From the IMG/VR virus record IMGVR_UViG_3300021426_000008: a stretch of 64,000 nt of DNA. One strand, written 5' to 3'. A program made the translations under genes and the position numbers. The notes beneath the pieces are model-generated. The model made no database searches. It was not told the origin of the DNA and saw only the letters and a list, made by a program, of their open reading frames with translations. This document shows positions 2,946-55,582 of this stretch, piece by piece (position 1 is the first letter of the stretch; the number at the start of each line of letters is the position of its first letter). The DNA is from a virus. Lineage: Duplodnaviria; Heunggongvirae; Uroviricota; Caudoviricetes.

Positions 2946-4364
2946 CTATTTATACCACGATTTCTTTTCTTTTTCCACTCCAAATAAATTCTTGAACACC
3001 GCTTCTAGTACGTTTACTACAATCGAGTTACCTGCTTGTTTATATAATTGCGTGTCTGAAGTAGGCACAGCCTGTGCTTTATCAAAATCTTCGTCACCAA
3101 ATCCCATTAGACGCCAACATTCTCTTGGAGTTAGTTTTCTAATACGCATATCCGGGGTAACAACACCCCTCTCACTTCCATTTGCCATTAAAGTCTGTGT
3201 CATTTCTTTTTGAACATTACCTCTTTGATACTTCATTCTTCCAGAAATATTAACACCGTCTCCTGCGTAAGCCTCTTTATATCCAGCTTTCGTGGCTTCT
3301 TTTATTTTCAAACAAGGCTCTATAACATAATTATCTTTTTGTACTGTTGTTATTGTATTACTAATTCCCTGTCTATTTATTTCCAATCTCTGTTCAGTAG
3401 GGATACCAGGAGTTCTATCACCTGGATTATCAGGATTTCTCCCCCTGCTCGCAGCAATAACTGGTTCATTAACAACAATCTTTGGTTGACGATTGCCACC
3501 TTGCATATCAGTAAGGGTGGGAGCAATACCCTCCCCAGAATACACGCGCTTAACGCAGTCGTGTCCTTTTATGTCTAATTTTCCTACAACTTGAATATAA
3601 TTGTCTCCTGACCTACACGCTCCAACTCTAGTAGTTACAGTCTTTGCCACACAGTCTCCGTCAGTAGTTTCAAATGCAAATCCATTTCCCTTCGCTCTCT
3701 GTCGTTCAGTGTTTGCTATTAGCCCAGCGATTAGCTTGTCACTTAAATAATATTTCTCGTCAACACTTTCTTCTAATACGTCTTTAAGTTTTTTAGTTAA
3801 TTTGATTTCTGGTGGGAATTCATAATTCAACCCCAAATCTTTCCTGATTGATACAGTGAACACACGCTCCCTGTTTTGAGGAATGCCATAATGTTTTGAA
3901 TTTAACACTTTATAATAACTATTATAACCGAGCTTATCCATAATTTCCAAATAACCGTCGAAATTATGTCGATTTTTACTACTCAATAAATTCTTTACGT
4001 TTTCCCAAACCACATATTTAGGTTTTACTACTTCAACTATATCAACAGTACACCACATTAAACTGCTCCTAGTACCAGAGCCTTTATCTCCTCCAGCAAG
4101 TCTACCGGCAATACTAAAATCCTGACAAGGTGAACCGTGGGTAATTAAATCTATTTCTAAATCTTTTAATTTATCTAAATCTATTTTACTAACGTCACCT
4201 AAATTCAAATCTTCTGAAACACCGTGTACTGCACAATAAGATTTTGTAGCATACTTATCAATTTCTGAAAACCCTACAAGCTCTACGTCTATACCTATTC
4301 GTTTAAGTGCTAATTCAAATGCACCAATTCCTGAAAACAAACTTAATACTTTCAAGCTAAACAC
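2946..4364 (-). CDS. DNA (cytosine-5)-methyltransferase
   Basis: Motifs I (FSGIGAFE), IV (GSPCQDFS), VI (ENVKNL), VIII (QNRERVF) and X (GNSIVV) appear in canonical order. Confidence 0.85.
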   Translation of the reverse strand: MFSLKVLSLFSGIGAFELALKRIGIDVELVGFSEIDKYATKSYCAVHGVSEDLNLGDVSKIDLDKLKDLEIDLITHGSPCQDFSIAGRLAGGDKGSGTRSSLMWCTVDIVEVVKPKYVVWENVKNLLSSKNRHNFDGYLEIMDKLGYNSYYKVLNSKHYGIPQNRERVFTVSIRKDLGLNYEFPPEIKLTKKLKDVLEESVDEKYYLSDKLIAGLIANTERQRAKGNGFAFETTDGDCVAKTVTTRVGACRSGDNYIQVVGKLDIKGHDCVKRVYSGEGIAPTLTDMQGGNRQPKIVVNEPVIAASRGRNPDNPGDRTPGIPTEQRLEINRQGISNTITTVQKDNYVIEPCLKIKEATKAGYKEAYAGDGVNISGRMKYQRGNVQKEMTQTLMANGSERGVVTPDMRIRKLTPRECWRLMGFGDEDFDKAQAVPTSDTQLYKQAGNSIVVNVLEAVFKNLFGVEKEKKSWYK

Positions 4365-7851: not shown

Positions 7852-8709
7852 TTATTTTATCCATTTTTCTTTTTCACATTTATAAACTCTCATATCAGTT
7901 ACATAGGTGTCAAAGAATTTATCGTAATATTCGTCATTCATATCGCAAAGAATAACATCCGCTTGGTTCACTGCTCGTAAGAGACTTCCCGAACCTGCGA
8001 AGAAGTCCCCAATGACACAACCCTCTTGGTCTGCGTCTGATAGCCATACCAAATGCTCTAATAATTTTCTAGGTTTTTGACAAGGGTGAGCTAGTTTATC
8101 ATCCCTATAATTTCCTTGAGGTTTAGCGAATTTTAGTACACTTGTCTTATCCCATAGTTTTGCTTTTTTATTTAATCTTGCGTTACCTTTTCTTACTACT
8201 ATAATTGGTGTTATGTCATAACTAAAATCACCTGTTATACTACTTATCATATTCGGTTGTTGCCAAAATATTACACGGTTGACGTCGAATAATTGATACG
8301 CCAAATATAAATATTTCATACTCCAAAATATGAACATAAAACTATCGTCTGCTAATTTCTGATGAGCTTTACAATACCAAGTATAACAATAATTCTTGTA
8401 GTCTTCTAATTTAGATTTTTCTTCCCACGGAATAGCAACTTCAAATCTAGGAGTTACCATACCTTTTTCTAAGTCACTCTCGCTAGGAGAGACCTGTGCT
8501 GTGTATCGTGAATGGAATATTGCTGCTCCATTTTTGTTTTTCATATTACCTGTTAATACGTTGTAGGGCGGGTCTATTATCCAGCAGTTAACACTTTCGT
8601 CCTCCAACTTATCTAACCATTCCATACAATCGGCTTTTGTGAATTTTCTATGACTGTAAGGATTTATGGTATTATCTCGTTTCATACTACTGTAAACGAC
8701 ATCTGCCAT
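7852..8709 (-). CDS. DNA methyltransferase (N6-adenine or N4-cytosine, beta class)
   Basis: IIDPPYNV (motif IV) lies N-terminal and DFFAGSGS (motif I) C-terminal. The IV-before-I order is typical of beta-class amino methyltransferases. Confidence 0.65.
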   Translation of the reverse strand: MADVVYSSMKRDNTINPYSHRKFTKADCMEWLDKLEDESVNCWIIDPPYNVLTGNMKNKNGAAIFHSRYTAQVSPSESDLEKGMVTPRFEVAIPWEEKSKLEDYKNYCYTWYCKAHQKLADDSFMFIFWSMKYLYLAYQLFDVNRVIFWQQPNMISSITGDFSYDITPIIVVRKGNARLNKKAKLWDKTSVLKFAKPQGNYRDDKLAHPCQKPRKLLEHLVWLSDADQEGCVIGDFFAGSGSLLRAVNQADVILCDMNDEYYDKFFDTYVTDMRVYKCEKEKWIK

Positions 8710-23295: not shown

Positions 23296-24408
23296 ATGAG
23301 CAGAAAGTTAGCAAGTGTGCAGACTGTCAGGGCGATAAAGCCGATAGAGGGCGCAGATAGAATAGAGATTGTTCAAATCTTAAACTGGGATTGTGTGGCT
23401 AGAAAAGGAGAATATCGAGTAGGAGATAAAGTTATTTATTTTGAAATTGATAGCTTACTTCCAGATATTCCAGCGTTTGAATTCTTAAAGGGTTCTTCTT
23501 GGTCACAAAAATTAAACAAGTATAAGATTTCTACACATAAATTTAGAAATCAAATTTCTCAAGGATTAGTAATACCTTATGAGCAGATAAAAGACTTAAT
23601 GGTACAAATCAATGGTGAAATAGATTTTAGAACTGAATATCCAGAGGGAGAAGATTTAACCGCATTGTTAAAAATTGAAAAATATGAACCACCAGTTTCA
23701 AACGGAGCGTTAGGTGATATAATTCATCACGAATGGTATATACCAAAAACTGATGAGGAGAGAATTCAAGTTTGTGCAGCAGACGTTTTACCAGCGTATA
23801 TAAATAGTGAACAAGATGATTGGTATAGCTCAATAAAACTTGACGGTACTTCTTGCACAGTTGGATTATTTGATGACGCATTTTTAATAGGTGGTAGAAA
23901 TCAATTTTATAAAGACGAAAATATGTATACCACTACAGTTAATAAGTATTTTGAAAATGGAGCTAAAGAGAAATTTGAAAATTATAAAGCTATAAATGGT
24001 ATATATGTAGCATTCCAAGGAGAATTATGTGGGCCCGGTATTCAAGGAAATAAATTAGGACTTAAAGAAAAAGAATGGTTTATATTTAATGCTTTTGTAA
24101 GTAAAACTGGTAAAAACGGAAGCTATGTAAAATGCGACTTATTATATATGTTAAAATTATGTGAAGAATTCGGTCTAAAACACGTACCTCTAATTGACGC
24201 AGAAGATAAATTCAAATTTGACCCTGAGGAAACAGTGGATAACACAGTGGAAAAATTATTGAAATATGTTGACGATATAAAATATAGAAAATATTTTGAA
24301 GACGCTTCACCAAGTCAAATTGCAGAAGGTGTTGTATTTAGAACAGAAGATATGACTTATTCATTCAAAGTTGTGTCTAATAAATATTTATTGAAAGGTG
24401 GAGAATAG
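23296..24408 (+). CDS. ATP-dependent polynucleotide ligase, probably an RNA ligase
   Basis: Motif I KLDGT, EGVVFR (motif IV-like) and KVVSNKYLLK (motif V-like). GAAGGAGG RBS. Confidence 0.55.
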   Translation: MSRKLASVQTVRAIKPIEGADRIEIVQILNWDCVARKGEYRVGDKVIYFEIDSLLPDIPAFEFLKGSSWSQKLNKYKISTHKFRNQISQGLVIPYEQIKDLMVQINGEIDFRTEYPEGEDLTALLKIEKYEPPVSNGALGDIIHHEWYIPKTDEERIQVCAADVLPAYINSEQDDWYSSIKLDGTSCTVGLFDDAFLIGGRNQFYKDENMYTTTVNKYFENGAKEKFENYKAINGIYVAFQGELCGPGIQGNKLGLKEKEWFIFNAFVSKTGKNGSYVKCDLLYMLKLCEEFGLKHVPLIDAEDKFKFDPEETVDNTVEKLLKYVDDIKYRKYFEDASPSQIAEGVVFRTEDMTYSFKVVSNKYLLKGGE

Positions 24409-26792: not shown

Positions 26793-27440
26793 ATGAAGGC
26801 AAAAATAGAACCACAAGGAATAATCGAAGCATATGAAAATGGTCAATCCTTGAACGCGATAGCACGTGCCTTCGGTACATATCCAACAACCGTTAGACGT
26901 ATCTTAGAAAGAAATGATATAGAACTGAGACACGACGCTATGATTAAAGGGTCTCATACTGTATTAAACGACGGAGAAAAACTAATTGAATGGGCTAAAG
27001 CTCAAGGTCGATTAGTAACAAGAAAAGAATTAGCAGAAGTAGTAGGTAAGACAAGATTGTCACCAGGGTATTTTCAAAAATATCCAGAACTTGGACAATA
27101 TGTAGCGTCTTATGAGCAGAAAGATATTAGAAAATATACAGAGCAATTATTTACTTGGTTGCAAGAAAATGATATTTCATACGCGCCAAACGACAGAAGT
27201 GCATTAGAAGGTATACCAGTACAAGCAAAATTATTAAATAAATACGACGGAATACTTATAACTATTGATATTAAATCTGTATCAATTAGTAATGCACGAT
27301 ATAAAGAAATGATACGTAGAAGATTAAAAAAAGCAAATGAAAAAGGATTGATTATGTTATTCTTAAAAGAAGAACATTTTGAGGATTTAGATTGTATTAA
27401 AGGCTTATTAGATAGTCTAAAATATTCAAAGGAGAGGTAG
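26793..27440 (+). CDS. HTH-domain DNA-binding protein
   Basis: GQSLNAIARAFGTYPTTVRRIL is a helix-turn-helix. Confidence 0.5.
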   Translation: MKAKIEPQGIIEAYENGQSLNAIARAFGTYPTTVRRILERNDIELRHDAMIKGSHTVLNDGEKLIEWAKAQGRLVTRKELAEVVGKTRLSPGYFQKYPELGQYVASYEQKDIRKYTEQLFTWLQENDISYAPNDRSALEGIPVQAKLLNKYDGILITIDIKSVSISNARYKEMIRRRLKKANEKGLIMLFLKEEHFEDLDCIKGLLDSLKYSKER

Positions 27441-27443
27441 TCA

Positions 27444-28058
27444 ATGGCTGGGCAAATGTTATATGTGAAGAAGGGGGAAAAGGACGTGGCAAAAGCGAGC
27501 GTAGTATTTAGCAAAGATAATGAATATTATACACCAAAATATGTAGTAGACTTCTTCTACCCTGATGGCTTCGACTATGACCCAGCAACTTGTGAAGGTA
27601 AAGCAAAAGAATTCGCAGTACCTCATTATGATACAATAGAAACAGACGGTCTTGCACAAGACTGGACAAAATATGACCGTATCTGGATTAACCCTCCGTT
27701 TACGGATAAACACAAGTTTTTAGCAAAGGCAGTTGAGACTTATAATAAGGCTCACAATACTATATATGTTTTATTCCCTATTGAATTTTTAACTACCGCT
27801 AGATTTCACGACTTACATTGTAAATGTGAATTATATGTACCTAAAGGTAGAATAAATTTTGAAAGTGGATTAGGTAAAACAGGAAAAAGTCCTGCCTTTG
27901 GTAGTGTAGTAATAAAGTTATCTGACAAAAATGTAATTCATTATATTGAATTAAAACCTGGCAATAGTGTAAACGATATAACGCCCGAAGATGTTACACT
28001 ACCAAATACAGAGGATTTAGGAAGTATTATAAAAAAGAAAAAATCTTGGTATAGATAG
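27444..28058 (+). CDS. Phage Dam-like DNA N6-adenine methyltransferase
   Basis: FSKDNEYYTP ... FDYDPA ... DGLAQDW ... IWINPPF follows the Dam (PF05869-type) pattern, including NPPF. Confidence 0.8.
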   Translation: MAGQMLYVKKGEKDVAKASVVFSKDNEYYTPKYVVDFFYPDGFDYDPATCEGKAKEFAVPHYDTIETDGLAQDWTKYDRIWINPPFTDKHKFLAKAVETYNKAHNTIYVLFPIEFLTTARFHDLHCKCELYVPKGRINFESGLGKTGKSPAFGSVVIKLSDKNVIHYIELKPGNSVNDITPEDVTLPNTEDLGSIIKKKKSWYR

Positions 28059-28338: not shown

Positions 28339-28411
28339 CGCGGGGGTGGTGCAACGGCAGCACGCTGGGCCCATAACCCAGAGACGAGGTTCGATTCCTA
28401 CGCCCGCAACC
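28339..28411 (+). tRNA. tRNA-Met-like (anticodon CAT), atypical
   Basis: Good D-arm (GTGC/GCAC) and anticodon arm (CTGGG CCCATAA CCCAG), but C33, a weak T-stem and a G-G acceptor mismatch. Possibly a pseudo-tRNA. Confidence 0.45.
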
Positions 28412-28437
28412 AATAATTTAGTAGGTAGGTAGTTAGA

Positions 28438-28902
28438 ATGTGGAAAGAATGTAGTGTCTGTTCAAATTACGAAATTTCAAAATATGGAGACGTTAGAAAT
28501 AAACAGACTGGAAAAATATTAAAACAAAAACTTGATAAAAGTAATTGTCTAATGGTGAATTTATCCTTAGGAAAAAGAGGAAAAGCAAAATATTATATAG
28601 TAGCTCGTTTAGTTGCTATGGCTTTTGTGCCAAATCCTATGGGTTACACTTGGGTTAGACATATTGACGGTAATACTTTGAATAATGAAGCAAGTAATCT
28701 TGAATGGGTAAAAGAGCGTTGGTCAAGTCAAGCTCGTGGTGAACACTCTCATAATTCAAAACTTACAACGGCAGAAGTAGAATGGTGTAGAGAAGTTTAT
28801 AAACCTAGAGATAAAGAATATGGTTTGACTTCACTTGCAAAACGTTTTAATGTTTCAAATTCAACAATGTCTTACGTACTAAATAATGTAACATATAAAT
28901 AA
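28438..28902 (+). CDS. HNH homing endonuclease (NUMOD4 + HNH_3-like)
   Basis: YEISKYGDVRN and ARLVAMAFVPNP...HIDGN...NNEASNLEW. Sits inside the tRNA cluster. Confidence 0.7.
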   Translation: MWKECSVCSNYEISKYGDVRNKQTGKILKQKLDKSNCLMVNLSLGKRGKAKYYIVARLVAMAFVPNPMGYTWVRHIDGNTLNNEASNLEWVKERWSSQARGEHSHNSKLTTAEVEWCREVYKPRDKEYGLTSLAKRFNVSNSTMSYVLNNVTYK

Positions 28903-28905
28903 CAT

Positions 28906-28979
28906 TCGGGAGTGGTGAAATGGTATCACATAGCGCTTTGACCGATATATTCCTAGTTCGAGTCTAGGCTCCCGAGCCA
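28906..28979 (+). tRNA. tRNA-Gln (TTG)
   Basis: Cloverleaf folded by hand: U1-A72, D-stem GTGA/TCAC, anticodon loop CTTTGAC, T-arm CCTAG TTCGAGT CTAGG, 3' GCCA. Confidence 0.7.
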
Positions 28980-29077
28980 GCCCGAAAGGGCGTGTGAACA
29001 TTTTATTTGGTGTTAATCACCAGACTTTGTTATATTCAACTCGAGCAGTTCGATTCTGCGACTACTATCTTAATTGA

Positions 29078-29100
29078 CGTGGGGGAGTGGTGAAAATCCG
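29078..29100 (+). repeat. Degenerate copy of the 5' part of tRNA-Gln
   Basis: GGGGGAGTGGTGAAAATCC versus TCGGGAGTGGTGAAATGG at 28906. A tRNA-Gln T-arm-like copy also occurs at 31262-31290. A partial tRNA-Ser 5' half (GCCGTGG...GTCAC) sits at 29213-29250. Confidence 0.4.
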
Positions 29101-29132
29101 CTATAGGAAAGATTGAATATAACATTGTATAT

Positions 29133-29208
<76 letters not shown>

Positions 29209-29427
29209 GATAGCCGTGGCGCTGTCACCTAGTTGTGAGGGTCAGTCACAACAAATCAACTAGAGTAACAATAAGCCGTAATCTGTATGCACGAGATTAT
29301 TGAAAGCCCTGATATGTGGTAACAAACTTTACCTAGAGCATACACGAGCAGTGGGTAAATACCGACAATCACTGCTGGGGAGGGTTAGTTGTTTCACCCC
29401 AGCCATTATATAAAAAGGAGAATTATT

Positions 29428-29727
29428 ATGTATTTCATAACAACAATCGAAACTAAAAAAGGAGATGTTAAAGATACACGTTGCGTAGGTTACTATAAAA
29501 CATTTGAAGAAGCCGAGCGAGCAGTAATGGAAAATGCGTGTGATATATGGGAAACTTGTTATGATTATGCAGTAATTGAAAACATAAAAGAAGGACTATA
29601 TCAATATGACTTCCACCCAACTTGGTATAAATATCACAAACCAACATCAGGATATATCAAATGTGAACAACCGGATTTTGTAAATCCAAAAGGTGGAGTA
29701 GGTATGATAGGATACGCTATCGGTTAG
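29428..29727 (+). CDS. Hypothetical protein
   Basis: Start set at the ATG after the AAAGGAG RBS. Confidence 0.45.
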   Translation: MYFITTIETKKGDVKDTRCVGYYKTFEEAERAVMENACDIWETCYDYAVIENIKEGLYQYDFHPTWYKYHKPTSGYIKCEQPDFVNPKGGVGMIGYAIG

Positions 29728-29789
29728 GAGGAAAATATGAATAGAAAAGGTTGCGTCTTCTAGGGCTTTGTGCCTAAGGAGGCGATAAA

Positions 29790-30092
29790 ATGAGTAGAAG
29801 TTATAAACACTTCCCAATTTCAAGAATGGTTTTATGGGGTAGGTCAATGAAAAAAGGAAAACAAGTGGCTAACCGTAAAATCAGAAGAAAACTAAAAGAC
29901 CCTGATATTGAAGTCGGTAACGGTAGATATTATAAATCTTTGGGGTTAGATAGTTGGGAATTGTGGGAATTCAAATTTTTAGAAACAAAACAAGACGCAA
30001 TAGACCGTTGGGAACAAGACCAAAAAGAATTAGCAAATGGAGTAAGACGGTTGGAGAACGCTACACGATTGGAGTTTAGAAGACGCAGTTAA
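29790..30092 (+). CDS. Hypothetical basic protein
   Basis: ORF with an AAGGAGG RBS. Confidence 0.45.
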   Translation: MSRSYKHFPISRMVLWGRSMKKGKQVANRKIRRKLKDPDIEVGNGRYYKSLGLDSWELWEFKFLETKQDAIDRWEQDQKELANGVRRLENATRLEFRRRS

Positions 30093-30145
30093 TGACTGGG
30101 CTAAATTCCATAAAAGAAAATAGGGGTTGGTTAGCCCCTCCATAT

Positions 30146-30220
30146 GGCGCTAGGGACAGTCGGTTAAGTCACCAGGTTTTCATCCTGGGGTGTCCAGTTT
30201 GACTCTGGATAGCGCTACCA
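30146..30220 (+). tRNA. tRNA-Glu (TTC)
   Basis: Acceptor GGCGCTA/TAGCGCT, anticodon arm CCAGG TTTTCAT CCTGG, T-arm TCCAG TTTGACT CTGGA, ACCA end. Confidence 0.75.
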
Positions 30221-30240
30221 AAAACGAAACGAGGTGCGAA

Positions 30241-30381
30241 ATGGATTACAAAACACAAATAGAAAAATCAAAAGAATTATTAGAAAGAACAAAATCTGCT
30301 ATTGAAGAAACAAAATATAGAAAAGAGGAAACTCGTAAAATAATACAAACTTATAGAAATAAAGACGAAGAAGAAAGATAA
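30241..30381 (+). CDS. Small hypothetical protein
   Basis: Internal Met with a GAGGTG RBS. The ORF-track start at 30190 overlaps the tRNA. Confidence 0.35.
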   Translation: MDYKTQIEKSKELLERTKSAIEETKYRKEETRKIIQTYRNKDEEER

Positions 30382-30384
30382 TAT

Positions 30385-30475
30385 GCCGAGATGGGTGAGT
30401 GGTTTAAACCAACGCACTGCTAACGCGTCGACCTAGTAACGGGGTCCGCAGGTTCGAATCCTGCTCTCGGCGCCA
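30385..30475 (+). tRNA. tRNA-Ser (GCT), type II
   Basis: Acceptor GCCGAGA/TCTCGGC, anticodon loop CTGCTAA, long variable arm, T-arm GCAGG TTCGAAT CCTGC, GCCA end. Confidence 0.75.
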
Positions 30476-30495
30476 ATAAATTTTAGGAGGTTATT

Positions 30496-30795
30496 ATGGT
30501 AGTATCAGGAGAAACAAAGAAAGAAAAATTAGTTATAGTTAATTGTGATTGTGGTTGTAACGAAGGTATTTATGTAACAAAATATAAAGAAGTAGGACTA
30601 CCTAATGACTATTATATTACAATTACAACTTCAAAATTTTATAGTGAGCAAGATAAAATGTGGCAAAAATTTAAAAAGAGACTTAAAATGATATGGTATG
30701 CTATAAGAGGCAAAGAATATAGGTTGTGTGAAATTTGTATTACTGACGACGATATAGACGAGTTAATAAAAAAGTTAGAGGAAATAAAGAAATGA
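30496..30795 (+). CDS. Hypothetical Cys-cluster protein
   Basis: NCDCGCNEG. Confidence 0.4.
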   Translation: MVVSGETKKEKLVIVNCDCGCNEGIYVTKYKEVGLPNDYYITITTSKFYSEQDKMWQKFKKRLKMIWYAIRGKEYRLCEICITDDDIDELIKKLEEIKK

Positions 30796-31010
30796 AATAT
30801 AAAGAATTTGTAGATTGGTGTAATCAAAGAGCTTGTGACGGCTGTTGGTCGTCTGCTACAGCAATTTATTGCATTGGTATTTGTAGCACGATAAATAGTT
30901 ACCGATTTTGGAAACGTGAAAAAATATGGAAAGAAAAATATGAAAAAGAAGTTGTCAGAGATATAGTTGAAGTTATCAACGAAAAACGTAGAGAAATGGG
31001 CTATTGTTAA
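30792..31010 (+). CDS. Hypothetical Cys-rich protein
   Basis: ORF. Confidence 0.4.
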   Translation: MKYKEFVDWCNQRACDGCWSSATAIYCIGICSTINSYRFWKREKIWKEKYEKEVVRDIVEVINEKRREMGYC

Positions 31011-31013
31011 TAT

Positions 31014-31100
31014 GGGTAAGCGCTAGAGTAGGAGAGCTAGGGCGGTCTGTAAAACCGTTGTCGAAAGGCTGAGGTGGTTCGATTCCACCCTTACCCACCA
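31014..31100 (+). tRNA. tRNA-Tyr (GTA), type II
   Basis: Acceptor GGGTAAG/CTTACCC, anticodon arm GCGGT CTGTAAA ACCGT, T-arm GGTGG TTCGATT CCACC, ACCA end. Confidence 0.75.
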
Positions 31101-31175
31101 TTAAAAACAGTCGATTTATGTATCCACATAGATACTGGTATGGGTAATAGAGTTTGACTGTTCTCTATTGTATAT

Positions 31176-31251
31176 GGGTCGTTAGCTCATCAGGTAGAGC
31201 ATTACACTTTTAATGTAAGGGTAGTTGGTTCGAGTCCAACACGACCCACCA
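31176..31251 (+). tRNA. tRNA-Lys (TTT)
   Basis: Acceptor GGGTCGT/ACGACCC, anticodon arm TTACA CTTTTAA TGTAA, T-arm GTTGG TTCGAGT CCAAC, ACCA end. Confidence 0.8.
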
Positions 31252-31354
31252 GCGAGTATCCCGATATATTCATAGTTGAATTCTAGGCTATAATATTATG
31301 GACGAAAGAGGGTAGGTAATCTCGGGGTATAGACCCTCAACTCGCCTCATTTAT

Positions 31355-31441
31355 GCCGTGGTTGTGACCGGCTAGTCACACCGTGCCTTGAAAGCACGTA
31401 CACGTGAAAGCGTGGGGGTTCGACACCTCACCACGGCGCCA
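31355..31441 (+). tRNA. tRNA-Ser (TGA), type II
   Basis: Acceptor GCCGTGG/CCACGGC, anticodon arm CGTGC CTTGAAA GCACG, long variable arm, T-loop TTCGACA, GCCA end. Confidence 0.7.
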
Positions 31442-34969: not shown

Positions 34970-35236
34970 TTAATAACTTTGTGACAAAATATTTTGAATA
35001 TCAATTTCTGTATTCAAACTACAAGTCCTAAAAATATAAGTTGGGTTGTCTTGCTGGTCACGGGTGAAGGAGGTGCATACCCCCATTGTCCCGTCTGCGT
35101 CAAATCCCATAAATCCTACGTCAACAAATCCTGAAATAGCAGTTAGTTGTGAAGCGTCTGTAATCGTTGTTGAATTACCTATCGTTCTTGATAATTTTGT
35201 TGTACTTATTGTACCTATATTATTAGCCATAAACAT
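34970..35236 (-). CDS. Small hypothetical protein (88 aa) at the end of the late operon
   Basis: ORF overlaps the stop of the upstream gene by 14 nt. Contains GFMGFDADGTMG and two Cys. Confidence 0.3.
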   Translation of the reverse strand: MFMANNIGTISTTKLSRTIGNSTTITDASQLTAISGFVDVGFMGFDADGTMGVCTSFTRDQQDNPTYIFRTCSLNTEIDIQNILSQSY

Positions 35237-38200
35237 TACCTCCTCTATCTATTTTAGTTAATCTTACGATTGTACTTATGTTATTGCTTATATTCACTAT
35301 TACGTAGATATGTCCCATACTATCTGTTAATATAAATCCATTTTGAATAGTTCCTGAAATTATATTTATATTTGCATTATCAACTGTAGTGCTATCACTC
35401 AAACTTAATGTTGTGTAGCCAATATCATTTCGTTCACTATCTGTTGAATATACAGCACGTAACGTTGTTGAACCCGCTACTGTTGTGACCGTTGTGGTTG
35501 GGTCATATATATTTGTGATTGTATCTGTGTCACCCTCCCAGTATTGGAATGTCATACCTGAAATTGTATCTGCTGTAATATTCACAGTTTCACCAGCTTC
35601 ATAAAATCCAGAAGTTTCTCCCGTGTCGTCAATAGTAGCATTTGATAAACTTAATTTATATGAAGATATATAATTAGCCTTTAATCCTACCGCTGTTGCT
35701 GGCATTTTAATATAAATTGGATTATCATAAGTACCTGGTATAAGAGGGTTAAACATACCTCCGTCCCATAATTCAATTTGAGTAATTGGTGTATAGTTTC
35801 CAGAAAGTACCGTCCACCTTGTGAATGTATATTTCACAGTAGAAGTATCTTCTTTACCAAATCTAATGTCTACTTTTTTACCTTCATACACCGTTGCAGA
35901 AGTTTGGTTTTCTCCAGTTAAGCCATCTACCAGTTCAATTTGTACATCACCTTTTCTAACCGTACTACCTTGAAACGTTGTTGCGACTTTTGGCATTGTC
36001 AATGTCGTAGTATGTGGAAAATCTGGTGGATTTGTTCTACTTATAATATCGCTCAAATCTTCTTCAGACGAATAAGCATACGCTGACCAACCACCGAAAT
36101 AATACTCGTTTGGATATTCTGTCATTCTAATTTCTACTTCGTCTCCAACATAATAGTCGTGAGGTTCGGTTGTCCAGTGTTCAGTCACTACTTCGTCTCC
36201 GGTTTCTGGGTCAGTAGAAGTTGTTGTATATTTCATTTCTCCATATATACCCGACCTATGTAAAGTTACTTTTGGTCTAGCTCCTTCGTCGATATAATTT
36301 TCTGTAATTTCAATATTTACAGAAGGTATTGTCATTTGAATTGGTGTTACTAATGCACTTGTACTAGCATAAGCCAAATCTCCAGTCCATTCGTAAAACT
36401 CTTTACCTTGGTCTGGGCTACTTGCGTATACCGTTACTTGGTCTCCAATAGGTCTTGTATATTGAGTAGTTGAACCATCTTTTCTATGTACTGTAAGTGT
36501 ACGTTGTTGAGTTGTGTCTGGTACAAAGAATGTGGCTTTAATCGTACAATCACTTCTTAACTTTGAAAGTCTGGTTGTTTCAGCTAATGGGCTATAAATT
36601 TCAACATAATTTGTTGTAGTCTGTAACACACCGTTTATATAGACTTCCCACTGTAAGAATTGATGACCATAAGGTACGGCACCTTGTTTAACTCTAATGT
36701 TGCTCAATGAATCACGTAAAATCGTTGCACTATCTACCCAAGTGTCTCCATTTTGAAGTTCACCGTCAACCATTGTTACTGTAAACCAAGGAATAGCTGA
36801 ATAATTACACGTTATCGTACTATCACTTGTTCTTGCGTATATTCTGGTTGAAGATGAATTTGTGTTAGCGATTTCTGCGTCTCCAGAAGTCAATGACCAA
36901 TGATTAAATTCATATGTATCTGGAGCTGTACCAGAGCTTACTGTTATGTAATCACCTTGTCTCACGTTATATGTGTTACTTCCTGAATTAGTTATTACTG
37001 TGATTTTTCTCATATTATAATTAGCTGTAACAGTACCATCAGCTCTACCTAATTTAACTGTAGTATTAGCACTATATGAATTTCCAATACTATAAATACT
37101 TGAAGTAGACCAATTTGAAAAATCTCCTAAACTTGTATCTGCTGAAATATTTACAGATTGCCTTTCTTTATAATCTCCTGAGCCTGTACCATTCACAACA
37201 GTTAAATGATACGTTTCTTTTTGTCTATATTCAACTGTAATAGTTGTATTTCCTGACACATAAAATCCATAACTTGTAGAAGTGCTTACTTGTGTTCCGT
37301 CTTTTAACCACCTTACAAATAAGTAATCTCCCACTTCTTCATTAGTCGAACTACTCCAATAATTTCCTGATAAAACTTGTGAAGTAGTAGTTTGTCCACC
37401 GTTGTTTCTGTTCACTAATGTTACTGTATAAGTTGGATAAAAGTCATATCTTGCTTCGATAGTTCTATCATTAGCTCCAGCTGTAATATCTAATGTTGTA
37501 CTTGTGCTAATTCTTGTATCGTTTTCATACCAACCATTAAATCTATATTCTCCTACAGTTGAGTTAGTTGTAAATCTTTGTTTACGTCCTTGTACTAATT
37601 GATTTACAGAAGTTCCTCCAGCATTATTTTGATTAGTAACTGTTATAGTTCTTATTGGTGCATAATGTCCTGTAATAATAGCGTTTCCGTCACCAACAGT
37701 AAATGTATTTGTATGATTTCCTAATGCGTCAGTGCCAATACTACCTTGACCTTCTATTGTCCAATTCAAAATACCTTGTGAACTATCTGGTGGGGTAGGT
37801 ACTAATGTATATGAATTTGTTTGTCTTAATCCACTGGCTTGTGCTACGTCACTATTATTAACTCTAATTAAACCGTCAATTACTTGCACTTCGTTATATG
37901 AATATACGTATTCAAAATGTGCTGTAAAACTCAATGCGTTATCTGGCATTTTGAATGACCCATATGAGCTATGTATATCAGTTAGATAATTTGTATTACC
38001 TGACCAATATGAAAATTTGTAATGACTTGGTACTGTAGCAGAAATATGTACGTTTGTACCGTATTTATAGATACCTCCACCTGTACCACCGTTTACAGTT
38101 AGATAATGTCCTGTTGCGTCTCTGTAGAATGCAGTTAATTCTACGTCACAATCAGGCATTGTAAGTATTGATACAGAAGGGTCTTCTGCGTTTGTCACAC

Positions 38201-39095
38201 CTACTATTTGGCGTAAAGCGTCTTCTGTTCCTTGCCATTCATAAAATTCCATTCCAAATGGTGCTACTGTTGCGATAATCATAACTTCCTCGCCTGCGAA
38301 GTATGTTGCTGTGCTTGGACCGCTACTTGCTGTAGGTGAACTACTTGTTGAAATATATCCGTTAGTAATTGTTAAAGTTCTTGGTATATGAGTTTCAAAA
38401 TTAGCACTATAAGCAATATCTCTATAAGGCATTACAAACGTAGCTTCTTGTGTTTCACTATCTGGTTGAAGTAATAGCAAATCCTGTGCTGTACCACTCC
38501 AATCTCTAAAAGATTGATATTGAGCATATTCACCATAAGGTACGCCTTTTATTGTCACTACTTCGTCTTCTGCAACTAATGCTGTACTAGCATTTATACG
38601 TTCAGTTGTACCGTCGTCCCTAACAACTTGTGTTATAATACCATTTGCTATTTCTACAGTCCAATAATCTAATGGTAATTTTGGTTGGTCGTGCATTAAA
38701 TATAATGCAAATTCTAATTGGTTGGCTAGTACATAGTTAGGTTGTGTCGCACTCGCATATATATTAGGTAATTGGTCAGCAATCGCAGGATTATTTTTAG
38801 ATAAATCCACTAATTGTTTAATATTACTTACAATTCTGTCTATATCCGTTTTAGTAGGCACCATATTTTTTTGCCAATAATCATTTTCATAAACTTCAAT
38901 ATCTGGTGCGGTACGTACTATTTTTTGTTGTACCATCCATTCAGCACAATACGCAGTGTTTTTCTCTAGTCTGTTTAAGTCTGTATCATTCCAAGCACCT
39001 TTAGGATTTTCTTGGTCTGGGTCTATTTGGACGGCTTTTACACTTCCTAAAGTTCTATCATAAATTGGTTCTATCCATTCTCTAGTCAAGCGCAA
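35223..39095 (-). CDS. Large tail protein (receptor-binding/tail-tip) with ~11 InlB-type B-repeat (Flg_new-like) modules
   Basis: Recurrent YxFxGW motifs (YRFNGWY, YEFNHWS, FYEWTG, FSYWSG and others). Lies downstream of the TMP-Dit-like genes. Confidence 0.5.
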   Translation of the reverse strand: MRLTREWIEPIYDRTLGSVKAVQIDPDQENPKGAWNDTDLNRLEKNTAYCAEWMVQQKIVRTAPDIEVYENDYWQKNMVPTKTDIDRIVSNIKQLVDLSKNNPAIADQLPNIYASATQPNYVLANQLEFALYLMHDQPKLPLDYWTVEIANGIITQVVRDDGTTERINASTALVAEDEVVTIKGVPYGEYAQYQSFRDWSGTAQDLLLLQPDSETQEATFVMPYRDIAYSANFETHIPRTLTITNGYISTSSSPTASSGPSTATYFAGEEVMIIATVAPFGMEFYEWQGTEDALRQIVGVTNAEDPSVSILTMPDCDVELTAFYRDATGHYLTVNGGTGGGIYKYGTNVHISATVPSHYKFSYWSGNTNYLTDIHSSYGSFKMPDNALSFTAHFEYVYSYNEVQVIDGLIRVNNSDVAQASGLRQTNSYTLVPTPPDSSQGILNWTIEGQGSIGTDALGNHTNTFTVGDGNAIITGHYAPIRTITVTNQNNAGGTSVNQLVQGRKQRFTTNSTVGEYRFNGWYENDTRISTSTTLDITAGANDRTIEARYDFYPTYTVTLVNRNNGGQTTTSQVLSGNYWSSSTNEEVGDYLFVRWLKDGTQVSTSTSYGFYVSGNTTITVEYRQKETYHLTVVNGTGSGDYKERQSVNISADTSLGDFSNWSTSSIYSIGNSYSANTTVKLGRADGTVTANYNMRKITVITNSGSNTYNVRQGDYITVSSGTAPDTYEFNHWSLTSGDAEIANTNSSSTRIYARTSDSTITCNYSAIPWFTVTMVDGELQNGDTWVDSATILRDSLSNIRVKQGAVPYGHQFLQWEVYINGVLQTTTNYVEIYSPLAETTRLSKLRSDCTIKATFFVPDTTQQRTLTVHRKDGSTTQYTRPIGDQVTVYASSPDQGKEFYEWTGDLAYASTSALVTPIQMTIPSVNIEITENYIDEGARPKVTLHRSGIYGEMKYTTTSTDPETGDEVVTEHWTTEPHDYYVGDEVEIRMTEYPNEYYFGGWSAYAYSSEEDLSDIISRTNPPDFPHTTTLTMPKVATTFQGSTVRKGDVQIELVDGLTGENQTSATVYEGKKVDIRFGKEDTSTVKYTFTRWTVLSGNYTPITQIELWDGGMFNPLIPGTYDNPIYIKMPATAVGLKANYISSYKLSLSNATIDDTGETSGFYEAGETVNITADTISGMTFQYWEGDTDTITNIYDPTTTVTTVAGSTTLRAVYSTDSERNDIGYTTLSLSDSTTVDNANINIISGTIQNGFILTDSMGHIYVIVNISNNISTIVRLTKIDRGGNVYG

Positions 39096-49919: not shown

Positions 49920-50813
49920 TTATTCTGTGATGTTAAATGCTATAGCTCCTGTTCTATTATTTAATATAAATACATCACTGTATTCTTTTTCATAATAGAT
50001 ATAGTCACCTTTAGTTCCAGCTGCTGGAGCTTCCATACCAACAAATGCGTATTTGCTAGGTGTTAAGATAGCAGATGGGTGTACTAAGAACAAGTTGATT
50101 TGTTTAGCACTATCAGATGGTTCAAATCCTGTAGTGAATGTATAAGCAGTCTTCATTAAGAATGAAGGTACAGATATTAACTTGATTTCGTCAAGTCTAT
50201 CTACAACTCTGTTTATAGTATTTTCACCATTTTGAACACTTCTTGATAGACCAATGTTACTAGCTTGTTTTAATAAAGTTTTAACAGCTGGAGTAACATA
50301 TAGTAATCTTCCTTGTGCAGGTACTAATGCTTCGTCCATTTGTTCCATTAACTTATCAAATACTGCTAATACATTGTCTACGTTTAAAGCTGTAGTGTCA
50401 GCTGTTTTTCCTTCAGCTACCCAATCAGCATATATTTTTGAAATTGTATATGCATCTTTTTCTGGAAATTTTTGTGTTTCGTTGAATACTTGTGTTGCGT
50501 TTTGGATAGTTAATACCATATTAGTATCCATAACGTCTGCTGGGTCTATACTTGTTGACCACTCTCTGTAGAATGTAAGGGTTTTTGTCTCCCATTCATT
50601 ATCTACGTTTCTTTGGAATGTTCCATCTATAGCGTCTCTGTTAACATTTTTTCTACCTGTTACAGAAATTGATGGAATATGAATTGTTTTTGCGTCTACG
50701 AACTTATATGTTCTGTTGTTAGCTACATTATATAATTCACCAAAGTTTAATACGTTTGGATATGCTTGTGCTAACGCTCTTTCGTAGGCTTCGGCATAAT
50801 TAACTGCGCCCAT
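49920..50813 (-). CDS. Putative major capsid protein
   Basis: 297 aa, own strong promoter and long leader, immediately upstream of the neck genes. No motif-level support. Confidence 0.45.
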   Translation of the reverse strand: MGAVNYAEAYERALAQAYPNVLNFGELYNVANNRTYKFVDAKTIHIPSISVTGRKNVNRDAIDGTFQRNVDNEWETKTLTFYREWSTSIDPADVMDTNMVLTIQNATQVFNETQKFPEKDAYTISKIYADWVAEGKTADTTALNVDNVLAVFDKLMEQMDEALVPAQGRLLYVTPAVKTLLKQASNIGLSRSVQNGENTINRVVDRLDEIKLISVPSFLMKTAYTFTTGFEPSDSAKQINLFLVHPSAILTPSKYAFVGMEAPAAGTKGDYIYYEKEYSDVFILNNRTGAIAFNITE

Positions 50814-50829
50814 AATAAATCCTCCTTTA

Positions 50830-50928
50830 AATTATATTTTTTTTAAACTAAAACAAGTTCGTAGCAAACCGAATGGGTCTAACTACACAACTGTTACGTT
50901 ATATAGAAATATTACCCATCCCATTTGC
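50830..50928 (-). terminator. Long hairpin (15-bp perfect arms CAAGTTCGTAGCAAA / TTTGCTACGAACTTG) plus U-tract in the 5' leader of the putative capsid gene
   Basis: Arms at 50844-50858 and 50914-50928. On the minus strand the stem is followed by UUUUAGUUUAAAAAAAA, then the RBS GGAGG. Confidence 0.5.
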
Positions 50929-50994
50929 TACGAACTTGGACCGAATTTCATACCAAATATCGTATGCCCCCAGGACATATCTATTTCTGTTCAT

Positions 50995-51023
50995 ATTATA
51001 ACAAAATTGAACAGAATAGTCAA
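50995..51023 (-). promoter_or_regulatory. Sigma-A-like promoter on the minus strand (TTGACT, 17-bp spacer, TATAAT) overlapped by the inverted repeat TTCTGTTCA-N14-TGAACAGAA
   Basis: Reverse complement of 50981-51030 reads ctcTTGACTattctgttcaattttgtTATAATatgaacagaa. Confidence 0.55.
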
Positions 51024-51041: not shown

Positions 51042-51401
51042 TTATAAAACTTTCCAAACGTCCCAAAGTTCTCTGTCTCTACAGTCAAATGTGTCATATA
51101 CAACGCCGTCAATCACCGTAGTTATATGATTAGGCATAGTTATTAAATATGTTCCAATTTGACATCTTTCGACAAAATCACCAACTGTTTCGTCTGGATA
51201 AGTTTCAACTCTGTCATACCTATAATCCAACAAAGGTTCAACAAAATTCACATCATCAAGTAAGATACCGTTTTTCTTTGCTATTCTACTTAAATCGTCA
51301 TACGTGTCACTCCAACTTTTATCTTCCGCAGTAGAAATAGCACGAATTACACAATCATTCACAAAATTATTATGCTCATTAGCATTATAATATTTATACA
51401 T
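51042..51401 (-). CDS. Papain-like cysteine peptidase-like protein (C39-like?)
   Basis: NDCVIRAIS (Cys) and MPNHITTVIDG (His) in the expected order. 119 aa. Weak. Confidence 0.3.
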   Translation of the reverse strand: MYKYYNANEHNNFVNDCVIRAISTAEDKSWSDTYDDLSRIAKKNGILLDDVNFVEPLLDYRYDRVETYPDETVGDFVERCQIGTYLITMPNHITTVIDGVVYDTFDCRDRELWDVWKVL

Positions 51402-52430: not shown

Positions 52431-52471
52431 TTCTAAAAAATTAAAGAGACAGACGAAACTTGTCTATCTCT
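52431..52471 (-). terminator. Intrinsic terminator (AGAGATAGAC aagtttc GTCTGTCTCT then UUAAUUUUUU) immediately upstream of the RBS of gene 51952..52425
   Basis: Read from the reverse complement of 52431-52471. Confidence 0.5.
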
Positions 52472-52535
52472 GTTCATATAGCAAGTTCTCGTATTCGAGC
52501 ATCCTGTAATCAGGTGCTTGCTGTTTTGTTTTTAC

Positions 52536-53459
52536 TTAAAAATTTCCATTACATCCGCATCCACAGCCGTTATTATTGTTGCAGGTAAATATCGGAGTGC
52601 GTCCATAGACCGGAGTTGCCGGAATTGGGCAGCTGTTCAATCTGTTATACAACTGGTCTACCTCATTACTAAATCCTTGAGAAATAAATGCGTTTTGAGC
52701 AGTTTGACTTGCTCTAAAATCTGCTGTACTTAGTTGTCTTTGTAAGTCTGCAATTTTATCATTTTTAGCTTCAACTTGTGCTTTTACTCCATCTAATTCT
52801 AATTGACATAGTTTATCAAGAATAGCTTGTGTATTAGAAGTTGCGTTTGTAATAATATCTCTTGTATTATTAGCGTCAGCAAATCTTGTAGCATTTCCTT
52901 CATTTTGAATAATGTTTTGAGTTTGACAATTTGCTAATCTATTTTCACAGCAACAATCAGCAAATTGAGAACCTAATTGGTTGAATCCCTGTAACATTGC
53001 TGTTTGATTATTGAAGTTTTGGTTCATATTAGCCATTTGTCTAGCATTAGCTGCAGTTTCAACATTAGCAAATCCAGAACTTACAGTTTGGTTCACTCCT
53101 GCGAATCCATTGCACAAACTTTGAGAAATGTCTCCACAACAGTTGCAAAGTTGTGTACTGATTCCTTGTACTGAATTAGAAATATCATTTAATTGATTTC
53201 CTAATTGTAAAGTATTGAAGCCTTGATTTGTATTTTGCATTATTTCTTTTTGTCCGTTTGATAGCCAAGGATACATATTATCAGCACCTCCGCCGAAGCC
53301 ACCGCCGAAACCACCATTGTTCCAGCCACCCATAGCAAAAATTAGAAATAATATTATCCACCAAGCTCCATTGTCGCCAAAACCTCCAAAACCACCATTG
53401 TTTCTGTCTTGGATTAAAGCTACATCAGAGGCAGATAAACCACCATTTCCATAATCCAT
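52536..53459 (-). CDS. Gly/Cys/Asn-Gln-rich membrane protein (YjcZ-like Gly-Cys style)
   Basis: GGFGGFGDNGAWWIILFLIFAMGGWNNGGFGGGFGGG, several CC/CCC clusters, C-terminus CNNNNGCGCGCNGNF. Confidence 0.4.
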   Translation of the reverse strand: MDYGNGGLSASDVALIQDRNNGGFGGFGDNGAWWIILFLIFAMGGWNNGGFGGGFGGGADNMYPWLSNGQKEIMQNTNQGFNTLQLGNQLNDISNSVQGISTQLCNCCGDISQSLCNGFAGVNQTVSSGFANVETAANARQMANMNQNFNNQTAMLQGFNQLGSQFADCCCENRLANCQTQNIIQNEGNATRFADANNTRDIITNATSNTQAILDKLCQLELDGVKAQVEAKNDKIADLQRQLSTADFRASQTAQNAFISQGFSNEVDQLYNRLNSCPIPATPVYGRTPIFTCNNNNGCGCGCNGNF

Positions 53460-54232: not shown

Positions 54233-54326
54233 AATTATTACCTCCTATCTAAATCCATTTTATAGAAATAAAAAATAAAATGTCAGTCAGACAGAACAAA
54301 AAAAAAATATGAGGATTTTTATATCC

Positions 54327-54899
54327 TCATATCTTACAATAAATTCTAATTGCAAACGCTACTTTATCTAATTTTTCAACTATTCTAGGATTATCCATAT
54401 CCAGAAGTTCGCTGATTTCACTAAAAGTTTTCTCGTCCTTAAATCTATATTTATATACCAAATATTCAATACCGTCTAATTGCTCTAATTTCTTTTCAAA
54501 TTCAATTAACTTATCATCAAATCTATTATATTTGACATATTCAGCTACGTCAGCGTATTTACTAGGTGTGCCGTCTGTATTCCACAAATACATATCTTTA
54601 ATATTTGACTTACCAGTCATTATGAAAGCACTAAATATCGCAAATAATATAGAAATGACTAAATCTACTTTTAGTAAAACAAATATACTAAGCATTATCA
54701 GCGTACTCCAAATTAAACACCTATACCAAGTTTTGAAATGTAGCGCTTTTCCAAATAACCCTCTACTAATCATAAATGTTAGCATTAGTATAACCACATA
54801 TCTCATATCCAGTTTTAGAGCAACACCAGATAGAAATATAATTGCAGTCTCTGCTAAATTAAAAATCAGAGTGGGTATCAATCTTCCTATTCTGTTCAT
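54327..54899 (-). CDS. Membrane protein (about 4 TM) with a C-terminal sigma-70 region-4-like HTH
   Basis: Hydrophobic N-terminal half. C-terminus KTFSEISELLDMDNPRIVEKLDKVAFAIR resembles sigma r4 / ArpU-type HTH. Confidence 0.4.
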   Translation of the reverse strand: MNRIGRLIPTLIFNLAETAIIFLSGVALKLDMRYVVILMLTFMISRGLFGKALHFKTWYRCLIWSTLIMLSIFVLLKVDLVISILFAIFSAFIMTGKSNIKDMYLWNTDGTPSKYADVAEYVKYNRFDDKLIEFEKKLEQLDGIEYLVYKYRFKDEKTFSEISELLDMDNPRIVEKLDKVAFAIRIYCKI

Positions 54900-55530: not shown

Positions 55531-55582
55531 TCCTCTTGTTCGTTATTATACCAATTATTTATTTTAATGTCAAATATATTTA

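Follow-up and report, generated by a model that had tools for sequence, protein, structure and literature searches.

A conserved leader RNA with two competing folds upstream of the major capsid gene in an uncultured tailed phage: a candidate transcription attenuator

Introduction

In the genome of an uncultured tailed phage, most of which is covered by the stretch analysed here (64,000 nucleotides of IMG/VR record IMGVR_UViG_3300021426_000008, Caudoviricetes; in the following, the window), the gene for the major head protein is preceded by a structured leader RNA that is predicted to adopt two mutually exclusive folds: a rod-like hairpin at the 5' end of the transcript, here called the sensor, and a long hairpin directly followed by a U-tract, here called the terminator. 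Judged from the comparison of related phages, both folds are conserved and the element occurs exclusively before the capsid gene of one phage clade. We consider it probable (about 0.6) that the leader is a cis-acting attenuator, in which termination would be the default and an effector would stabilise the antiterminating fold, either as in a riboswitch or with the help of a protein. It would most likely serve as an on/off switch for the production of virus particles.

The timing of late (structural) gene expression is poorly understood in the phages of gut Firmicutes. Known models for late timing involve activators, sigma factors, and Q/N-type proteins; an RNA switch before the capsid gene would be a different checkpoint, placed after initiation. 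Attenuators in which a terminator competes with an antiterminator are a well-known kind of device. This RNA family is absent from Rfam, and no description of the family, of the sensor structure or of its position before a major capsid gene was found in Rfam or in the literature searched. The leader could reveal a new pair of RNA and effector and, for an uncultured phage lineage, could mark where the late operon begins, and as a compact element (84 nucleotides plus a terminator) with clear invariant loops and predictable mutants it is directly testable in vitro. A preliminary description of the region had reported a promoter, an inverted repeat, and a terminator-like hairpin, and overlooked the main point, that the leader is a conserved structured RNA family and more than a hairpin.

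Conservation of the sensor

All leader coordinates are on the minus strand; the predicted start site lies at about 50988 and the leader is 175 nucleotides (nt) long (Table 1). The comparison set consists of about 40 related phage contigs, with a main subfamily (sf1) and a divergent subfamily (sf2; L030, L031, L156, L194, and L197), whose capsids are about 65-68% identical to that of the window. Folded with RNAfold, the 228-nt intergenic RNA has a free energy of -74.4 kcal/mol (z = -7.9; none of 200 shuffles was as stable), far more stable than its shuffles.

The same arrangement of P1a, J1, P1b, J2, and P2 is the minimum free energy structure of the 5' domain folded alone in all 37 of 37 homologues, despite their differing P2 sequences, and RNAalifold independently predicts P1a, P1b, and the base of P2. 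In the alignment, 85% of the cells assigned to sensor pairs are paired, as against 38-52% with the partner strand slid. Fifteen of the 23 pairs have changed on both sides, and 0 of 500 shuffles reached the covariation score, a significance that is overstated because the homologues are mutually related. P1b is paired in 100% of the sequences, its central two pairs occurring as CC/GG, CU/AG, UC/GA, and UG/CA(CG). Changes on both sides are found at seven of nine pairs in P1a (e.g., AGGAAUA/UAUUCUU, AUAUAACU/AGUUGUAU, and UAUAUUC/GAAUAUA) and at six of seven in P2, where the closing pair is A-U in 24 sequences and G-C in 10. The U.G and G.U pairs flanking P1b and both internal loops are invariant, which amounts to about 24 invariant columns, and the near-invariant blocks read AGAAAUAGAUAUGUCYUGGGG and AAAUGNRAUGGGUA. 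The 5' domain thus has what is expected of a riboswitch aptamer, namely conservation with covarying helices and invariant junction nucleotides.

The terminator fold

The arms of the terminator hairpin (50938-50914 and 50878-50854) are 25 nt long and 88% complementary, with a perfect basal helix of 15 bp (50938-50924 with 50868-50854), and the hairpin alone has a predicted energy of -49 kcal/mol. The preliminary description had named this 15-bp base, followed by UUUUAGUUU, a ribosome-binding site (RBS), and ATG, and all of these are present; its estimate that the hairpin lies about 60 nt downstream has to be corrected, since it begins about 50 nt after the predicted start site. Over 33 sequences the terminator fold is 95.7% paired, with 53 cells changed on both sides, while slid controls reach 30-42%; exchanges of UA and CG are found at four pairs of the base stem. 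Such a stable G+C-containing stem directly before a U-tract is a mark of an intrinsic terminator, and a transcription stop at the U-tract seems likely. The hairpin is not of the compact short-loop type, being 85 nt long with internal loops and an apical hairpin of its own. A U-rich tail follows the stem directly in about 20 of the 33 relatives.

Competition between the two folds

The 5' arm of the terminator (50938-50914) consists of the 3' strand of P2, J2, P1b, and the GGU of J1. Since the 3' half of the sensor is thereby also the 5' arm of the terminator, the two folds are mutually exclusive, and an expression platform exclusive of the aptamer, as in riboswitches, is present in the form of this shared strand, which pairs in both. 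The shared strand covaries with both of its partners, and each partner fits its own shared strand much better than a foreign one, taken from relatives whose shared strand differs: the duplex of the P2 5' strand with the shared strand has -9.9 kcal/mol with its own and -5.1 kcal/mol with a foreign partner, and that of the shared strand with the 3' arm of the terminator -18.1 and -11.6 kcal/mol, respectively. For the RNA 50988-50846, the terminator fold is the minimum free energy structure (-58.0 kcal/mol), and the RNA with the sensor enforced has -41.4 kcal/mol. Folding of the growing chain gives the sensor as minimum at lengths of 86 to about 110 nt and the terminator from 122 nt on, as its 3' arm emerges.

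The divergent subfamily sf2 keeps the sensor core and little else of the leader. Its terminator, too, is a long hairpin, of -32 to -34 kcal/mol, with U6 behind it; here as well the 3' half of the sensor provides the 5' arm (AAAUGCRAUGGGUA plus the P1a 3' strand). The 3' arm is unrelated in sequence to that of sf1, and a compensatory change (GCAAU/AUUGC vs. GCGAU/AUCGC) is found. The same competition is thus kept in two lineages with different sequences, and this is the strongest argument for a real switch. The sf2 leaders contain further pairings. In L030, L031, L156, and L194, the GGGG within the invariant UGGGG block can form an H-type pseudoknot with CCCC of the P2 loop, and the terminator is followed by a further strong hairpin, an arm sequence of which (GUUUAUCU) recurs once before the RBS. 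These extra pairings suggest a more elaborate expression platform in sf2.

Two other readings of the leader were weighed. The hairpin might be a constitutive processing or stability element of the kind known from the T7 early mRNAs, a site for RNase III or a 5' stabiliser of the capsid transcript, with termination not being regulated, and some 25 quasi-continuous base pairs in the 5' untranslated region of a gene whose product is needed in quantity, with a weak U-tract in some relatives, would suit such a role. We regard it as highly improbable, as it leaves unexplained both why a helix-destroying alternative fold is under selection and why a U-tract comes right after the stem, not only in the window but in most relatives and in sf2 as well. 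The leader might also be a small RNA gene in its own right, equipped with a promoter and a terminator, acting in trans on host or phage mRNAs and merely adjoining the capsid gene. A strong promoter, a predicted product of about 140 nt with a stable 3' hairpin and U-tail, and a conserved 5' segment of 50 nt that is partly single-stranded in the terminator fold are compatible with this. It is nevertheless very unlikely, as the conserved 5' bases pair intramolecularly and covary, the element is tied to the capsid gene only, no separate capsid promoter is evident downstream, and the weak terminator tail of many relatives leads one to expect read-through. The terminated product could still have a secondary function.

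A model of regulated termination

In the mechanism that we propose, RNA polymerase would initiate at about 50988 from a near-consensus promoter of the sigma-A/sigma-70 type, and the first 84 nt of the transcript would fold into the sensor. The next 60 nt would bring the strand ACCCAUUCGGUUUGCUACGAACUUG, which is complementary to the 3' half of the sensor. Its ACCCAU would pair first with AUGGGU, which the sensor leaves unpaired or in wobble pairs, and would then displace P1b, J2, and P2; AUGGGU in J1/P1b may therefore act as a toehold for strand invasion. Invasion would produce the -49 kcal/mol hairpin before UUUUAGUUU and a stop about 135-143 nt from the start, ahead of the capsid gene. If the sensor were held together, the terminator would not form and the polymerase would continue into the capsid-to-tail operon. 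The default state would then be OFF, and a putative effector may decide the outcome by binding to the invariant internal loops.

As putative effector, an infection-specific factor such as a phage protein is favoured over a general metabolite. Invariant loops across diverged phages point to a constant partner, and the occurrence of the motif in phage contigs only, as found in exact-pattern scans, counts against a classical metabolite riboswitch. In addition, linkage to genes for metabolism or transport of a ligand, which is typical of riboswitches, was not found; the true instances precede a phage capsid gene. It is rather unlikely that the sensor is the aptamer of a new riboswitch class for some small-molecule or nucleotide signal that varies in the course of infection. 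If it were, phages of gut Firmicutes would gate their whole virion-structural operon by a chemical cue and not by a phage transcription factor.

Several observations weigh against regulated attenuation, beside the relatedness of the homologues noted above. The terminator is favoured over the sensor by about 17 kcal/mol, so that a switch would need kinetic control or a strong stabiliser. In about 13 of the 33 relatives, 2-4 A residues lie between the stem and the U-run; these leaders may terminate only weakly and could be regulated at a different step. A consensus terminator scan did not call the unusually long hairpin (85 nt), whose loop is larger than the 3-8 nt that the scan accepts. The four invariant G.U pairs of P1b may indicate that these bases serve beyond simple pairing. 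Finally, no recognisable antiterminator or RNA-binding regulator was found in Pfam and PHROGs scans of a subset of the open reading frames (ORFs) of the window, namely neighbouring and larger ones; the only match to a DNA-binding domain among the scanned ORFs was a helix-turn-helix protein (26793-27440).

Other forms of control were considered and set aside. Against leader-peptide attenuation, sequence inspection shows that the AUG in the invariant GAUAUGUCC has no Shine-Dalgarno sequence; the length and frame of the ORF vary between relatives (16, 10, 22, and 13 codons), and the conserved bases covary as RNA pairs. Sites for TRAP, HutP, CsrA, and LexA (Cheo box), that is, the respective repeats, GGA or GAAC-N4-GTTC, are absent or not conserved by eye.

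Promoter and layout of the leader

The TTGACT-17-TATAAT promoter named in the preliminary description is present on the minus strand. It matches the consensus at 11 of 12 positions, carries a TG before the -10 hexamer, and is kept, as a -35 hexamer, a spacer of 17-18 nt and a -10 hexamer, in 36 of 38 distinct relatives; in most of them P1a begins 6 nt after the -10 hexamer. Promoter-like pairs of hexamers are not enriched in the region (73 found, 65 +/- 9 expected), and it is the conservation among relatives that argues for a real promoter. The gene after the leader encodes, as had been assumed, the capsid protein (Table 1). No separate capsid promoter is evident downstream of the leader element.

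Table 1. Features of the capsid leader and related elements in the window
Feature	Position	Strand	Sequence or remark
-35 hexamer	51018-51023	-	TTGACT; TTGACA, TTGACT or TTTACA in relatives
Extended -10	50995-51003 (TATAAT 51000-50995)	-	TGtTATAAT; 17-nt spacer after -35
Left arm of inverted repeat	51008-51016	-	TTCTGTTCA; in promoter spacer, upstream of start; extendable to 51020
Right arm of inverted repeat	50985-50993	-	TGAACAGAA; spans predicted start, overlaps first 4 nt of P1a; extendable to 50981
Sensor domain	50905-50988	-	84 nt, first 84 nt of transcript; P1a, J1, P1b, J2, P2
P1a (sensor)	50988-50982 with 50911-50905	-	AGAAAUA/UAUUUCU
J1 (internal loop)	50981-50978 opposite 50916-50912	-	GAUA/GGUAA
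P1b (sensor)	50977-50971 with 50923-50917	-	UGUCCUG/UGGGAUG
J2 (internal loop)	50970-50968 opposite 50926-50924	-	GGG/AAA
P2 (sensor)	50967-50927	-	variable hairpin
Terminator hairpin	50854-50938	-	15-bp perfect base; inner helix GGGAUGGGU with ACCCAUUC; apical hairpin 50906-50883
U-tract	50845-50853	-	UUUUAGUUU; directly 3' of terminator hairpin
Shine-Dalgarno and start codon	50828-50821; 50813-50811	-	AAAGGAGG; ATG
Major head protein gene	49920-50813	-	phrog_422, E 1.4e-94; first gene of conserved capsid-to-tail module
Second terminator stem	52471-52445	-	tail UUAAUUUUUU (TTAATTTTTT); in 110-nt gap after stop of 307-aa ORF, 20 nt before next start codon

Another promoter of the window, at 55545-55573 on the minus strand, is a perfect consensus sequence (TTGACA-17-TATAAT plus TG), 15 nt before the RBS of an ORF of 182 amino acids (aa). 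It has neither an inverted repeat nor a structured leader.

The inverted repeat at the promoter

The inverted repeat over the promoter was described correctly, with perfect arms of 9 nt (100% complementary) that are 14 nt apart; RNAfold extends them to CUAUUCUGUUCA/UGAACAGAAAUAG. The repeat around the -10 hexamer is kept in about two thirds of the relatives, the remaining third having no clear repeat, and scores of at least 9 are reached by 34% of the relatives and by 4.5% of shuffles. At least six unrelated versions occur, with arms of up to 14 bp and loops of 8-16 nt, among them TGTTCATAT-N8-ATATGAACA, ACTATTTTTATTTA-N14-TAAATAAAAATAGT, TTTCTAAT-N13-ATTAGAAA, CTATTTCTA-N15-TAGAAATAG, and TTTATATT-N10-AATATAAA, as well as one with swapped half-sites, GTGAACA-N13-TGTTCAC. 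The geometry is constant, one arm lying in the promoter spacer and the other at or after the start, abutting or overlapping P1a. A shape that is kept while its sequence varies fits conserved base-pairing or co-evolving regulators better than one fixed operator. The half-site of a fixed operator should be conserved among the relatives and recur at other promoters, neither of which was found: the 9-mer half-site has 52 matches with at most one mismatch in the window (24 expected), and no second pair within 30 nt is evident there, the other matches being single sites. By these sequence comparisons the inverted repeat is real and is not a fixed operator. Of the earlier interpretation, a terminator before the capsid gene that implies antitermination or attenuation has gained from the competing conserved fold and the covariation of both folds, while the role of the repeat as an operator is unproven. 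Two readings remain, a DNA site for co-evolving regulators (a repressor or a Q-like protein) or an RNA hairpin that blocks P1a in transcripts reading in from upstream.

In the layout of its parts, the closest phage system appears to be the lambda PR'-tR' unit with its antiterminator Q. In lambda, a strong promoter at the late genes is followed within 200 nt by a terminator, a short RNA (6S RNA) is made, and read-through is needed for late expression. There it is on the DNA that the decision falls, through a Q-binding element together with a sigma-dependent pause; the lambda leader RNA lacks a conserved fold that would compete. Correspondingly, the leader described here could be a constitutive late promoter with a short terminated RNA that has no sensing role, at which a Q-type DNA-binding antiterminator would load at the inverted repeat. 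The near-consensus promoter, the terminator about 135 nt downstream, and the late genes beyond are those of a lambda Q unit, and by analogy the repeat, which straddles the -10 hexamer and varies in sequence between relatives, could be the Q-binding element; such elements likewise vary between lambdoid phages. This explanation is nonetheless improbable. Unlike PR'-tR', the capsid leader has a conserved RNA antiterminator, and about 24 invariant nucleotides and the covarying competing fold of P1a, P1b, and P2 would be left unexplained; about a third of the relatives have no clear repeat, no Q-like protein was found in the Pfam scans of the ORF subset, and a -10-like pause element was not seen by eye. 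A Q-type mechanism could, however, work alongside an RNA switch.

In the second reading, the repeat would form an RNA hairpin (P0) only in transcripts that come from upstream genes, and its spacer arm would tie up the start of P1a. Transcripts reading in would then default to termination, and those from the dedicated promoter could form the antiterminator. Beside the constant shape and the position of the arms, which flank the start and abut or overlap P1a, this is supported by the hairpin predicted for the window, which covers AGAAAUAG, by CTATT (the complement of AAUAG), found upstream in 20 of 38 sequences as against 4.8 expected and a shuffle maximum of 11, and by the absence of a terminator between the upstream ORF and the promoter in the window. 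A precedent is known from the attenuator of the conjugative element pLS20, where the upstream hairpin SL-2 blocks completion of the antiterminator (PMC13401043). The sequestration of P1a is only partial, on the other hand, with a mean of 4.0 of 8 nt paired as against 2.5 in shuffles, and the commonest variant overlaps P1a by only 1-2 nt. No clear excess of stability is seen for the sense over the antisense strand (21 vs. 15 cases; G.U pairs 33 vs. 23), the repeat is absent in about a third of the relatives, and a repressor co-evolving with its site explains the same data. We therefore see P0 as possible, though doubtful.

Comparison with known systems

The attenuator that we propose resembles the transcriptional riboswitches and attenuators of Firmicutes in its conserved 5' domain, which is made first and has invariant internal loops and covarying helices, and in that the 3' half of this domain doubles as the 5' arm of a terminator with a U-tract behind it, so that the folds are mutually exclusive. 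It differs from them in being found in phage contigs only and before a structural rather than a metabolic or transport gene, in its terminator of 85 nt with an apical hairpin of its own, and in the lack of an Rfam match.

The RAT antiterminators bound by proteins of the LicT/SacY/BglG family are hairpins of about 29 nt with two conserved internal loops, which overlap a terminator and are stabilised by the effector. The sensor likewise is a hairpin with two conserved internal loops that overlaps a terminator, but it has 84 nt, a variable apical hairpin, and a different consensus, and no CAT-PRD protein was found in the Pfam scans of the ORF subset. In the put RNA of phage HK022 and in the EAR RNA, processive antitermination is achieved by RNA only, and no strand is shared with the terminators that are suppressed. 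Like these, the leader is a structured RNA that would let the polymerase pass a terminator, and like put it is made immediately after a phage promoter; unlike them it shares a strand with its own terminator, and it has no match to an Rfam family. That its antiterminating fold excludes a terminator built into the same RNA is indicative of a conditional switch, unlike put and EAR.

By analogy, the closest described counterpart in a mobile element is the zipper-type attenuator cATT, which heads the conjugation operon of pLS20 (Nucleic Acids Res 2026, PMC13401043). The logic is similar: cATT, too, is the leader of a very long operon, on a Gram-positive mobile element; its long imperfect hairpin takes in the 5' part of an intrinsic terminator when it is extended, and a weak stem-loop upstream can keep the antiterminator from being completed (PMC13401043). 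The possible P0 hairpin might play the latter part in the capsid leader. In cATT the conformations are similar in energy and the antiterminator is the default, whereas the terminator of the capsid leader is about 17 kcal/mol more stable; the first genes downstream are those of the conAn antitermination system (conAn1/conAn2) in pLS20 and the capsid gene here (PMC13401043). No resemblance between the two unaligned sequences was noticed.

Distribution of the leader

A covariance model of the 5' domain (R1) has one hit in the window (50903-50992, 84.4 bits, E 8e-21) and elsewhere matches capsid leaders only. Every instance with enough downstream sequence directly precedes the capsid gene of this clade, the element lying 16-30 nt before the capsid RBS. 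The leader is absent from the next-closest capsid relatives (57-59% identity), where a scaffold-like ORF abuts the capsid gene. No extra copies of the sensor were found in the window or in about 95 related loci, and no second copy of the start-site sequence in the relatives, among which close ones are inadequately covered. The intergenic sequence is detectable by BLAST down to about 71% identity. Scans of genome collections used an exact pattern with a 30-nt gap range; they are narrow and overlook members whose P2 is long. All their hits were phage-like contigs binned into metagenome-assembled genomes (MAGs), apart from chance hits not confirmed by R1.

At gathering thresholds, Rfam 15 (4227 families) finds only tRNAs in the window. 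At E <= 10, the leader of the window and those of sf2 matched nothing but models of microRNA precursors, with scores far short of the threshold. The leader motif may be among the about 8,500 unnamed RNA candidates from IMG/VR that were catalogued in 2023 (PMC10690425).

The second terminator

The preliminary description placed a second terminator in the same leader position at 52431-52471 (Table 1), a parallel that is not supported. No promoter-like sequence above 9 of 12 consensus matches was found near it in the promoter scan, and it has no sensor RNA, R1 matching the window once, at the capsid leader. It looks like an ordinary intrinsic intergenic terminator. A direct repeat of 22 nt (86% identical, 19 of 22 nt) connects the two regions (52458-52479 and 50975-50996): one copy (ATATGAACAGAAATAGATATGT) lies at the start of the capsid leader, and the other (ATATGAACAGAGATAGACAAGT) makes up the left arm of the second terminator together with the sequence on its 5' side. 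The repeat could be a shared protein or RNA recognition site or the remnant of a duplication.

Gly, Asn, Gln, and Cys are extremely abundant in the 307-aa protein encoded before it (52536-53459, minus strand), which also has a hydrophobic segment and, at its C terminus, NNNNGCGCGCNGNF; it belongs to no confident family. A strong terminator-like hairpin with a 13-bp stem and a long T run lies at 54304-54335 (minus strand), overlaps the end of a 190-aa ORF, and is followed by an AT-rich gap of 70 nt.

Genome setting

No DNA match to the window was found among 50,697 deposited phages (INPHARED), and the capsid protein is at most 56% identical to those of deposited phages, the best match being a Clostridioides phage. 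Relatives are numerous in IMG/VR and in metagenome and MAG collections and include a contig from the human gut; some of their contigs are binned, by the MAG labels, with Lachnospiraceae, Clostridia, and Bacilli, which suggests a host among Lachnospiraceae or other Clostridia/Bacilli.

Downstream of the capsid gene, on the same strand, lie a gene similar to tail proteins or chaperones (phrog_2115), a weak match to a major tail protein, and an ORF of 1778 aa, a candidate tape-measure gene by position and size range only, with no support from annotated families. Upstream of the leader, no head-assembly function was recognisable in Pfam and PHROGs scans. The downstream genes are common to the window and sf2, while the upstream genes differ. 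The 228-nt intergenic gap extends from a 119-aa ORF (51042-51401, minus strand) to the capsid ORF (49920-50813, minus strand). The 119-aa product belongs to phrog_3754, of unassigned function, with more than 130 relatives in IMG/VR, mostly in phages without the leader; by eye only, the order of its Cys, His, and Asp residues recalls a small papain-like hydrolase.

Downstream of the tape-measure-sized ORF, a 1290-aa protein (35223-39095, minus strand) contains four InlB B-repeat (Flg_new_2) domains. From its position we infer that it is probably a tail fibre or adhesin, which may be consistent with a Gram-positive host. The large terminase gene (1503-2933) is distant from the capsid module. Three DNA methyltransferases are encoded at 2946-4364 (minus), 7852-8709 (minus), and 27444-28058 (plus), of the C5, N6/N4, and Dam-like types. 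Eight tRNA genes (Met, Gln, Thr, Glu, Ser, Tyr, Lys, and Ser) are clustered at 28340-31441 on the plus strand, and an RNA ligase gene (23296-24408) lies near this cluster.

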